DNA of 27,684 bases from a virus (taxonomy: Duplodnaviria > Heunggongvirae > Uroviricota > Caudoviricetes), in the IMG/VR virus record IMGVR_UViG_2562617057_000002; one strand, 5' to 3'. Every line of letters starts with the position of its first letter. Positions within the stretch are counted from its first letter, which is position 1. The notes beneath the pieces were generated by a model. It was not told the DNA's origin. It searched no databases and saw only the letters and a list, made by a program, of their open reading frames with translations. Of the stretch, positions 1-831 are shown one piece after another. A program made the translations under genes and the position numbers.

Positions 1-552
1 AAGGTTGTCCGGGAACTGGCTGGTCTGGCGTTCGTGGAGCGCAGCGAAAACGTGATCCTGCTGGGCCCTCCTGGTGTCGGAAAAACTCATCTGGCCATAG
101 CTCTTGGCGTGAAAGCGGTGGATGCGGGACATCGGGTACTGTTTATGCCACTGGACAGACTGATCGCGACACTGATGAAAGCGAAACAGGAAAACCGGCT
201 GGAGCGTCAGCTACAGCAACTGAGTTATGCCCGGGTGTTGATCCTGGATGAAATAGGCTATCTGCCGATGAACAGAGAGGAAGCCAGTCTGTTCTTCCGG
301 CTACTGAACCGTCGATATGAAAAAGCGAGCATCATACTGACGTCAAACAAAGGGTTCGCAGACTGGGGAGAAATGTTCGGAGATCACGTACTGGCAACAG
401 CGATCCTGGATCGGCTGCTACATCACTCAACCACGCTGAATATCAAAGGAGAGAGTTACCGGTTAAAAGAGAAACGTAAAGCTGGAGTGCTGACCAAAAA
501 CACAACGCCAATCAGTGATGATGAAATGGTGGAAAGCGGACAGCATCAGTAA
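1..552 (+). CDS. istB: IS21-family transposition helper ATPase IstB, 5'-truncated by the window edge (C-terminal ~183 aa present)
   Basis: Frame is open from base 1 ([29 protein letters not shown]...); Walker A GPPGVGKT and Walker B-like LILDEIG motifs; IstB/DnaC-like AAA+ architecture. Family assignment by recollection. Confidence 0.85.
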
Positions 553-611
553 CGAAAGTATTTAGCGGGCATGAAAATGGCAAATAACGGTCAAACATCG
601 TGGCGTTGACA
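1..611 (+). mobile_element. Right-hand part of an IS21-family insertion sequence (istB plus right terminus); remainder lies left of the window
   Basis: istB stop at 552 is followed ~60 bp later by an abrupt junction into phage Rz coding sequence at ~611/612; the outside-in terminal sequence reads TGTCAACGCCA. Exact end uncertain by a few bp. Confidence 0.6.
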
Positions 612-831
612 CAGCTAACTCCTTCGTGTATTTAGCATCGAGTGCATCAGCAGAACGCTGGCGCTGCTGCATGTCAGTAATGGTTGCGTTCGCCAGCTTC
701 AGTTCTCTTGCGTTTTTGTCGCGCTGCTCTTTGTAGGTAATGGCGTTATCACGGTAATGATTAACAGCCCATGACAGGCAGACGATGATGCAGATAACCA
801 GAGCGGAGATAATCGCGGTGACTCTGCTCAT
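612..831 (-). pseudogene. Rz: Phage i-spanin Rz, 5' fragment (~73 codons) truncated by the IS21-family insertion; embedded Rz1 presumably lost
   Basis: N-terminus [34 protein letters not shown]...DAKYTKELA is lambda-Rz-like; ATGA overlap with the endolysin stop; the frame then runs into IS-derived sequence ([16 protein letters not shown]) and stops at 562. Confidence 0.7.

Follow-up and report, generated by a model that had tools for sequence, protein, structure and literature searches.

The DNA analysed here, referred to below as the window, is a stretch of 27,684 nucleotides that covers a lambdoid prophage adjoining yebY in the enteroinvasive Escherichia coli (EIEC) strain 53638, with the integrase gene at positions 25874-26950. 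It corresponds to positions 1-27684 of the public record AAKB02000001.1, which starts inside an insertion sequence (IS). The features considered in this work are the following:

1..552, plus strand: 3' part of istB, codons 83-265 and the TAA stop (NCBIfam and Pfam matches, identity to complete copies of the IS)
553..611, plus strand: right, non-coding end of the IS with its terminal inverted repeat (identity to the right ends of the complete copies)
612..616, no strand assigned: predicted target site CAGCT, or CAGC if the duplication is of 4 bp (from other copies of the IS and PMC10122671)
619..624, minus strand: orphaned Rz1 Shine-Dalgarno sequence AAGGAG (phage 21 record, lambda geometry and sequence reading)
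612..831, minus strand: Rz', comprising codons 1-73 and one further nt of the i-spanin gene Rz (alignment to intact Rz)
562..831, minus strand: chimeric ORF of 89 codons, 73 from Rz and 16 from the IS terminus (stop TAA at 562-564; EDU65054.1)
828..1325, minus strand: intact SAR endolysin of the R21 / RrrD type, 165 aa (identity to phage 21 R, PDB matches, Pfam PF00959)
1325..1540, minus strand: intact class II pinholin/antiholin of the S21 type, 71 aa (alignment to S21-71, Pfam PF04971)
3872-6567: IS66-family element (tnpA-, tnpB- and tnpC-like ORFs at 3958-6537)
11426-12874: IS110-family element (398-aa ORF at 11653-12849)
20604-22029: IS4-family element inside recE (448-aa ORF at 20617-21963)

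The first 611 positions of the window are the right-hand part of a 2130-bp IS21-family element and are identical, at 611 of 611 positions, to complete E. coli copies located in tssC of strain FDAARGOS_943 and in a transposase pseudogene of strain Ecol_542. Positions 1-552 score 226.6 bits on the NCBIfam model NF038214 (IS21_help_AAA, cutoff 200), which places them with the istB helper AAA+ ATPases, and match Pfam PF01695 (IstB_IS21, E=3e-69) over profile positions 78-238; they encode the C-terminal two thirds of IstB. This part of the gene, which reads through to a TAA stop at 550-552 on the plus strand, is 100% identical to istB of both complete copies. In the latter, istA codes for 390 aa (284 bits on NCBIfam transpos_IS21, cutoff 160) and istB for 265 aa; in 53638, istA would precede window position 1 and the data on this gene come from the two complete copies. 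The family name rests on the PGAP labels of these copies ("IS21-like element IS21 family") together with the NCBIfam and Pfam scores, all of which uphold the assignment to IS21 made in the sequence-only reading. When compared to the PGAP-annotated IS21-like copies, which are 2130 bp long and combine istA and istB, TG...CA ends and target duplications of 4-5 bp, the 53638 element is thus 100% identical over the 611 bp present, its right 611 bp being the only part visible. At least 80% of the query formed by positions 1-611 was present in 720 genomes, and the element is complete in many E. coli chromosomes and plasmids.

The terminus of the element falls at position 611, 59 bp past the istB stop, where the sequence ends in ...GGCGTTGACA with the terminal CA at 610-611. 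This right end, which reads ...GTTGACA at 605-611, is that of a TG...CA terminal inverted repeat, and the identity of the right ends of the FDAARGOS_943 and Ecol_542 copies stops at the very same base, beside unrelated flanks. In full copies the terminal repeats pair with each other (left, TGTCAGCGCCA; right, read in reverse, TGTCAACGCCA), the ends being TGTCAGCGCCA... and ...TGGCGTTGACA, for an overall TGTCA...TGACA. Target-site duplications in the IS21 family are short, from 4 to 8 bp and typically of 5 bp. Those flanking the complete copies measure 5 bp in tssC (GATAT) and 4 bp in the transposase pseudogene (TATA). Elements of this family have been described as carrying istA and istB between terminal inverted repeats with a terminal CA and flanking direct repeats of 5 bp; in vitro, their insertions yield 5-bp repeats and the terminal CA is required (PMC10122671).

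On the other side of this terminus lies Rz, whose start ATG is at position 831 on the minus strand and whose sequence matches, down to position 612, that of the intact gene in EIEC strain RMDEC332 at 220 of 220 nt. The same base-for-base identity down to 612 was found with Rz of the EIEC prophage in FDAARGOS_943. Beyond 612, the Rz strand switches to the IS terminus TGTCAACGCC... and Rz, which in related EIEC prophages codes for 155 aa, is cut after residue 73 of 155 by the IS21-family element. Chance resemblance is excluded since the 611/611 and 220/220 identities flank one sharp breakpoint located at a canonical ...CA-3' IS end. The earlier claims that 73 codons of a lambda-type Rz read directly into the IS terminus, and that the junction lies at about 611/612, ca. 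60 bp after the istB stop, were therefore borne out to the base by the alignment to intact Rz, phage 21 and lambda, with a breakpoint after 73 codons plus 1 nt.

The Rz' product is identical to lambda Rz at 67 of 73 aa (92%) and retains the transmembrane domain at its N-terminus together with about three quarters of coiled-coil 1. Residues 74-155, which comprise the remainder of coiled-coil 1, the linker, coiled-coil 2, the two periplasmic cysteines and the C-terminus, are missing, so that the complete periplasmic coiled-coil domain of an Rz i-spanin is no longer present. The Pfam model PF03245 correspondingly covers profile positions 1-45 of 126 only (40 bits) versus 1-125 for an intact relative, and a tblastn search of the window with intact Rz returned residues 1-73 only (100% identity). 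The chimeric ORF has been deposited as EDU65054.1, a "bacteriophage lysis protein" of E. coli 53638; a frame of 93 aa (562-843) is the same one, counted mechanically from an upstream GTG. The exact 89-aa chimera was recorded, by exact protein look-up, on a single contig named E. coli 53638, and the junction (Rz nt 220/221) was absent from all other complete E. coli genomes, 5426 of which were examined. Draft contigs of Shigella flexneri (L018-L021) were considered as possible carriers of a shared junction and rejected: they end in Rz after codon 73, reading ...GAGTTAGCCAA, at 2 nt from the 53638 breakpoint. These ends may correspond to a different Rz allele (ELAN...) combined with an assembly break, or to a different insertion nearby.

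The breakpoint coincides with the start of the embedded o-spanin gene, Rz1, which lies in the +1 frame of Rz. In intact relatives, the first base after the breakpoint position is the A of the ATG of Rz1, a 68-aa product that matches Pfam PF06085 (E=4e-21) and carries VVGC ahead of the Cys that is lipid-modified, a motif that by reading appears to be a lipobox. The same geometry is found in lambda, where Rz occupies 45966-46427 and Rz1 46186-46368, which sets the Rz1 ATG at Rz nt 221, and in the curated record of phage 21, where the ribosome-binding site of the o-spanin falls on the window side and its ATG on the first missing base. The IS thus sits exactly between the Rz1 ribosome-binding site and the expected position of the Rz1 ATG, and the Rz1 Shine-Dalgarno sequence now precedes TTAGCTG and then the IS instead of that ATG. 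A tblastn search with intact Rz1 found no Rz1 coding sequence in the window, and no lipoprotein ORF starts there at Rz nt 221. The sequence-only reading, which held that the insertion had removed Rz1, is right as regards the window, but the gene has been cut off from its ribosome-binding site, and on this side from the late operon, rather than demonstrably deleted.

The two other genes of the cassette were expected to be intact and proved to be so. The pinholin is identical to S21-71 of phage 21 at 68 of 71 positions (96%) and matches Pfam PF04971 with 121.8 bits (E=1e-35). It has kept the MKSM motif with the dual starts typical of this product, Met1 at 1540 and Met4 at 1531. The endolysin shares 95% identity with phage 21 R along all of its 165 aa and matches PDB entries 3hde and 4zpu end to end, at residues 1-165; it combines an N-terminal SAR (signal-anchor-release) domain with a lysozyme domain of the GH24 type, and E35, D44 and T50, which we take to be the catalytic Glu-Asp-Thr residues, were read directly in the sequence.

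The cassette closely follows that of phage 21, with which it shares the gene order S-R-Rz and tRNA genes upstream. Besides the similarities of S (96%) and R (95%), a count by eye gives about 88% identity for Rz residues 1-73, and the Rz1 ribosome-binding site has the same position in both. The differences are that phage 21 has an intact embedded Rz/Rz1 pair whereas in 53638 Rz is cut by the IS at nt 220 and the Rz1 coding sequence is absent on the window side, that the intact relatives of the 53638 prophage diverge from phage 21 in the C-terminal half of Rz (mosaic), and that the antiterminator is of the DUF1133 type in 53638 instead of Q21. The tRNA genes, four in number, lie at 1834-2141 between the Q-like antiterminator gene and the holin, and were called by ARAGORN as Val-TAC, Thr-TGT, Arg-TCT and a tRNA with a CAT anticodon, the latter being called tRNA-Ile by PGAP in the relatives.

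The consequences for lysis may be predicted from lambda, in which lysis is defective when Rz carries a nonsense mutation at any of 34 positions spread over its periplasmic domain, or an engineered stop at codon 151 or 152. In that phage coiled-coil 1 (CC1) extends over residues 27-87, Rz depends on Rz1 to be stable and functional, and outer-membrane disruption requires the Rz-Rz1 complex (PMC5295617). The 53638 cassette is predicted to be spanin-null because its Rz lacks part of CC1, all of coiled-coil 2 (CC2) and both cysteines, and because Rz1 is deprived of the ribosome-binding site left on the window side. By reference to lambda genetics (PMC5295617), the Rz' allele should be spanin-null, and the insertion almost certainly disables the last step of lysis. 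If the late operon were expressed, the pinholin would depolarise the membrane and the SAR endolysin would degrade the cell wall, but with no bridge between i-spanin and o-spanin the outer membrane would stay unbreached and cells would be expected to round up rather than burst, as do lambda Rz or Rz1 null mutants. In both the 53638 allele and the lambda Rz/Rz1 nulls (Cahill et al. 2017, PMC5295617), the i-spanin is truncated inside its periplasmic domain, and a block at outer-membrane disruption is expected in 53638 by analogy with the latter (PMC5295617). The lesions themselves differ, an IS insertion in the 53638 Rz as opposed to nonsense or amber alleles in lambda, and, unlike the lambda Rz point mutations, that of 53638 removes both spanin subunits and adds a foreign tail of 16 residues. 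Spanins could in principle be supplied in trans by other prophages of strain 53638.

This prophage has at least four IS insertions, that in Rz included, and the Rz lesion is part of its general decay in an IS-rich EIEC genome. The IS66-family element separates the nin-region genes from the DUF1367/YbcO/DUF1133 (Q-like) genes, and its flanks overlap by 7 bp relative to the RMDEC332 prophage, consistent with a target duplication. Being situated upstream of the late-gene regulator, it could impair late expression as well. The flanks of the IS4-family element overlap by about 14 bp, and, taken as a whole, the other IS elements of the prophage display overlaps typical of target duplications. The 99.9%-identical prophage that strain VL40 carries has neither the IS110 nor the IS4 insertion. 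Altogether, the 53638 prophage is probably defective in several ways.

In VL40 (locus L016, positions 9300-12007), the prophage, whose 99.9% identity extends over window positions 6571-27684, has its IS66 copy joined directly to a truncated neck gene that belongs to another tail module. This prophage is without the Q-like gene, the tRNAs, the lysis cassette and the head genes, which looks like an IS66-associated deletion.

Other lysis modules were also found to be hit by closely related IS21-type copies. In E. coli E200139 (L064), such a copy is inserted in the endolysin gene rrrD, of which both halves are present, and its IstB protein has the same accession as that of the complete copies in FDAARGOS_943 and Ecol_542. 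In E. coli TUM9757 (L065), it lies in a KilA-N gene just downstream of Rz. Both insertions affect modules of the DLP12 type, with the IS oriented relative to the lysis genes as in 53638. Given how the search was framed, these independent hits in Rz, rrrD and a KilA-N gene in three strains could be due to chance.

The arrangement found at the start of the window is best explained by transposition of the 2130-bp IS21-family element into the Rz/Rz1 locus of a phage-21-type lysis cassette, and such an event in the lambdoid prophage of E. coli 53638 is given here a probability of about 0.9. The sequence-only reading had itself pointed to the circumstance that would speak against a disruption, namely that the 89/93-aa ORF be a natural short variant of Rz. 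An open frame annotated as a lysis protein could be taken that way, but the point of divergence is the terminal base of an IS identical to copies found elsewhere, the tail of 16 residues is IS-encoded and the same terminus adjoins unrelated genes in other locations. In addition, the best 120 homologues listed are all full-length, most of them of 155 aa and a few of 154-166 aa (entries of 194-202 aa among them correspond to starts called further upstream), while the exact 53638 protein occurs on one contig only and covers no more than profile positions 1-45 of 126 of the Pfam Rz model. A short variant was therefore rejected, with 120 of 120 of these listed homologues full-length and an IS-encoded tail, and its probability is negligible. 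Erroneous joining, during assembly, of an IS read with Rz would be in line with a record that begins in the IS, the region being evidently hard to assemble, and with a junction shared by none of the 5426 complete E. coli genomes. What makes such an error unlikely is the position of the break, precisely on the IS terminal base: a false join would not be expected exactly on the last base of the canonical ...TGACA. The junction moreover lies 611 bp inside the contig, and IS insertions confined to one strain are the rule in EIEC and Shigella, which makes an artefact very improbable. Hardly more credit can be given to the view that a spanin-less S-R cassette, or Rz' itself, has been kept for a function, for example to release proteins or vesicles non-explosively or to counter lysis in a dominant-negative manner. 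S and R are indeed fully intact amid heavy IS traffic and, as far as the titles of publications indicate, holin/endolysin cassettes serve protein release in other bacteria; yet the allele is not conserved, being found on a single contig, the prophage has multiple other disruptions, and the lambda study refers to dominant-negative behaviour being absent among the spanin mutants tested (PMC5295617). It is equally improbable that the insertion was selected, with the host keeping the module for controlled, non-explosive release, or that the IS has a preference for lambdoid lysis modules.

Within the framework of an IS21-family transposition, the remaining alternative concerns what lies on the far side of the element, as the left part of the IS and the DNA beyond it are outside both the window and record AAKB02000001.1. 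A simple insertion with a target duplication of 4-5 bp, leaving the distal part of Rz/Rz1 beyond the IS, is rather probable. It would place a repeat of CAGC(T) at the unseen left end, in the arrangement ...TTCAGCTTTCGCAT + CAGC(T) + TGTCAGCGCCAGTG... (distal Rz/Rz1, target and IS left end, respectively), or, in an alternative rendering of the expected left junction, ...CATTTTCAGCTTTCGCAT-CAGC(T)-TGTCAGCGCCAGTGATAT.... The same IS forms simple insertions, with both gene halves present, in tssC of FDAARGOS_943 and in rrrD of E200139. A less likely possibility, although one to be kept in mind, is that deletion, inversion or inter-IS recombination mediated by the IS has led to the loss or relocation of distal Rz, Rz1 and perhaps terminase or structural genes. 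In its favour, the record starts at an istB codon shared with about a dozen draft contigs, which points to an assembly break at the edge of a repeat, and the near-identical prophage of VL40 has lost the nin region through the neck gene beside an IS66 copy. TerS as found in the closest relatives has no exact counterpart on the 53638 chromosome contig, an absence that fits either an allelic difference or the loss of the late region, and the exact Rz1 protein has no record assignable to the 53638 chromosome, which carries little weight because Rz1 is rarely called as a gene. Against this reading, simple insertion, with both halves of the target kept and a duplication of 4-5 bp, is what the other copies of the IS that were examined show, the remaining three IS elements of the prophage look like simple insertions too, and the missing exact-match proteins may reflect only allelic differences or gene calling.

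Searches for the distal side gave the following results. Blastn of intact relatives against the window found no copy of distal Rz or terS; exact scans returned 0 matches for the right junction in viral contigs and 0 for the predicted left junction in viral and genome contigs; and the ORFs predicted at the junction for duplications of 4, 5 and 6 bp had no exact matches in the protein collection. In an exact look-up, the neighbouring proteins (a Rha-like protein of 183 and 198 aa, and TerS) were found in other strains only and never on a 53638 contig. The predicted 82-aa N-terminal fragment of IstB occurred only on short contigs, which indicates that the record was not simply circularised at the istB break. 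The 183-aa fragment is the first gene on about a dozen draft contigs of other strains (L044-L053 among them). These contigs, which come from unrelated assemblies, start within 1-3 nt of the 53638 record start at istB codon 83, which suggests that assemblies repeatedly break here, at the boundary of a repeat internal to the IS, and that the record start is not a closure point.

An IS-disrupted prophage gene is an ordinary phenomenon, and the present case, a further instance of prophage decay driven by IS elements in the EIEC/Shigella lineage, raises no open question. That the two embedded spanin genes are lost together to one insertion, placed at the Rz1 start, is only a mildly notable detail, yet it offers a neat illustration of the architecture of this embedded gene pair. 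In practice the finding chiefly serves annotation: E. coli 53638 has an Rz::IS21 pseudogene deposited under the name "bacteriophage lysis protein", and the prophage that carries it should be scored as spanin-null and multiply disrupted.
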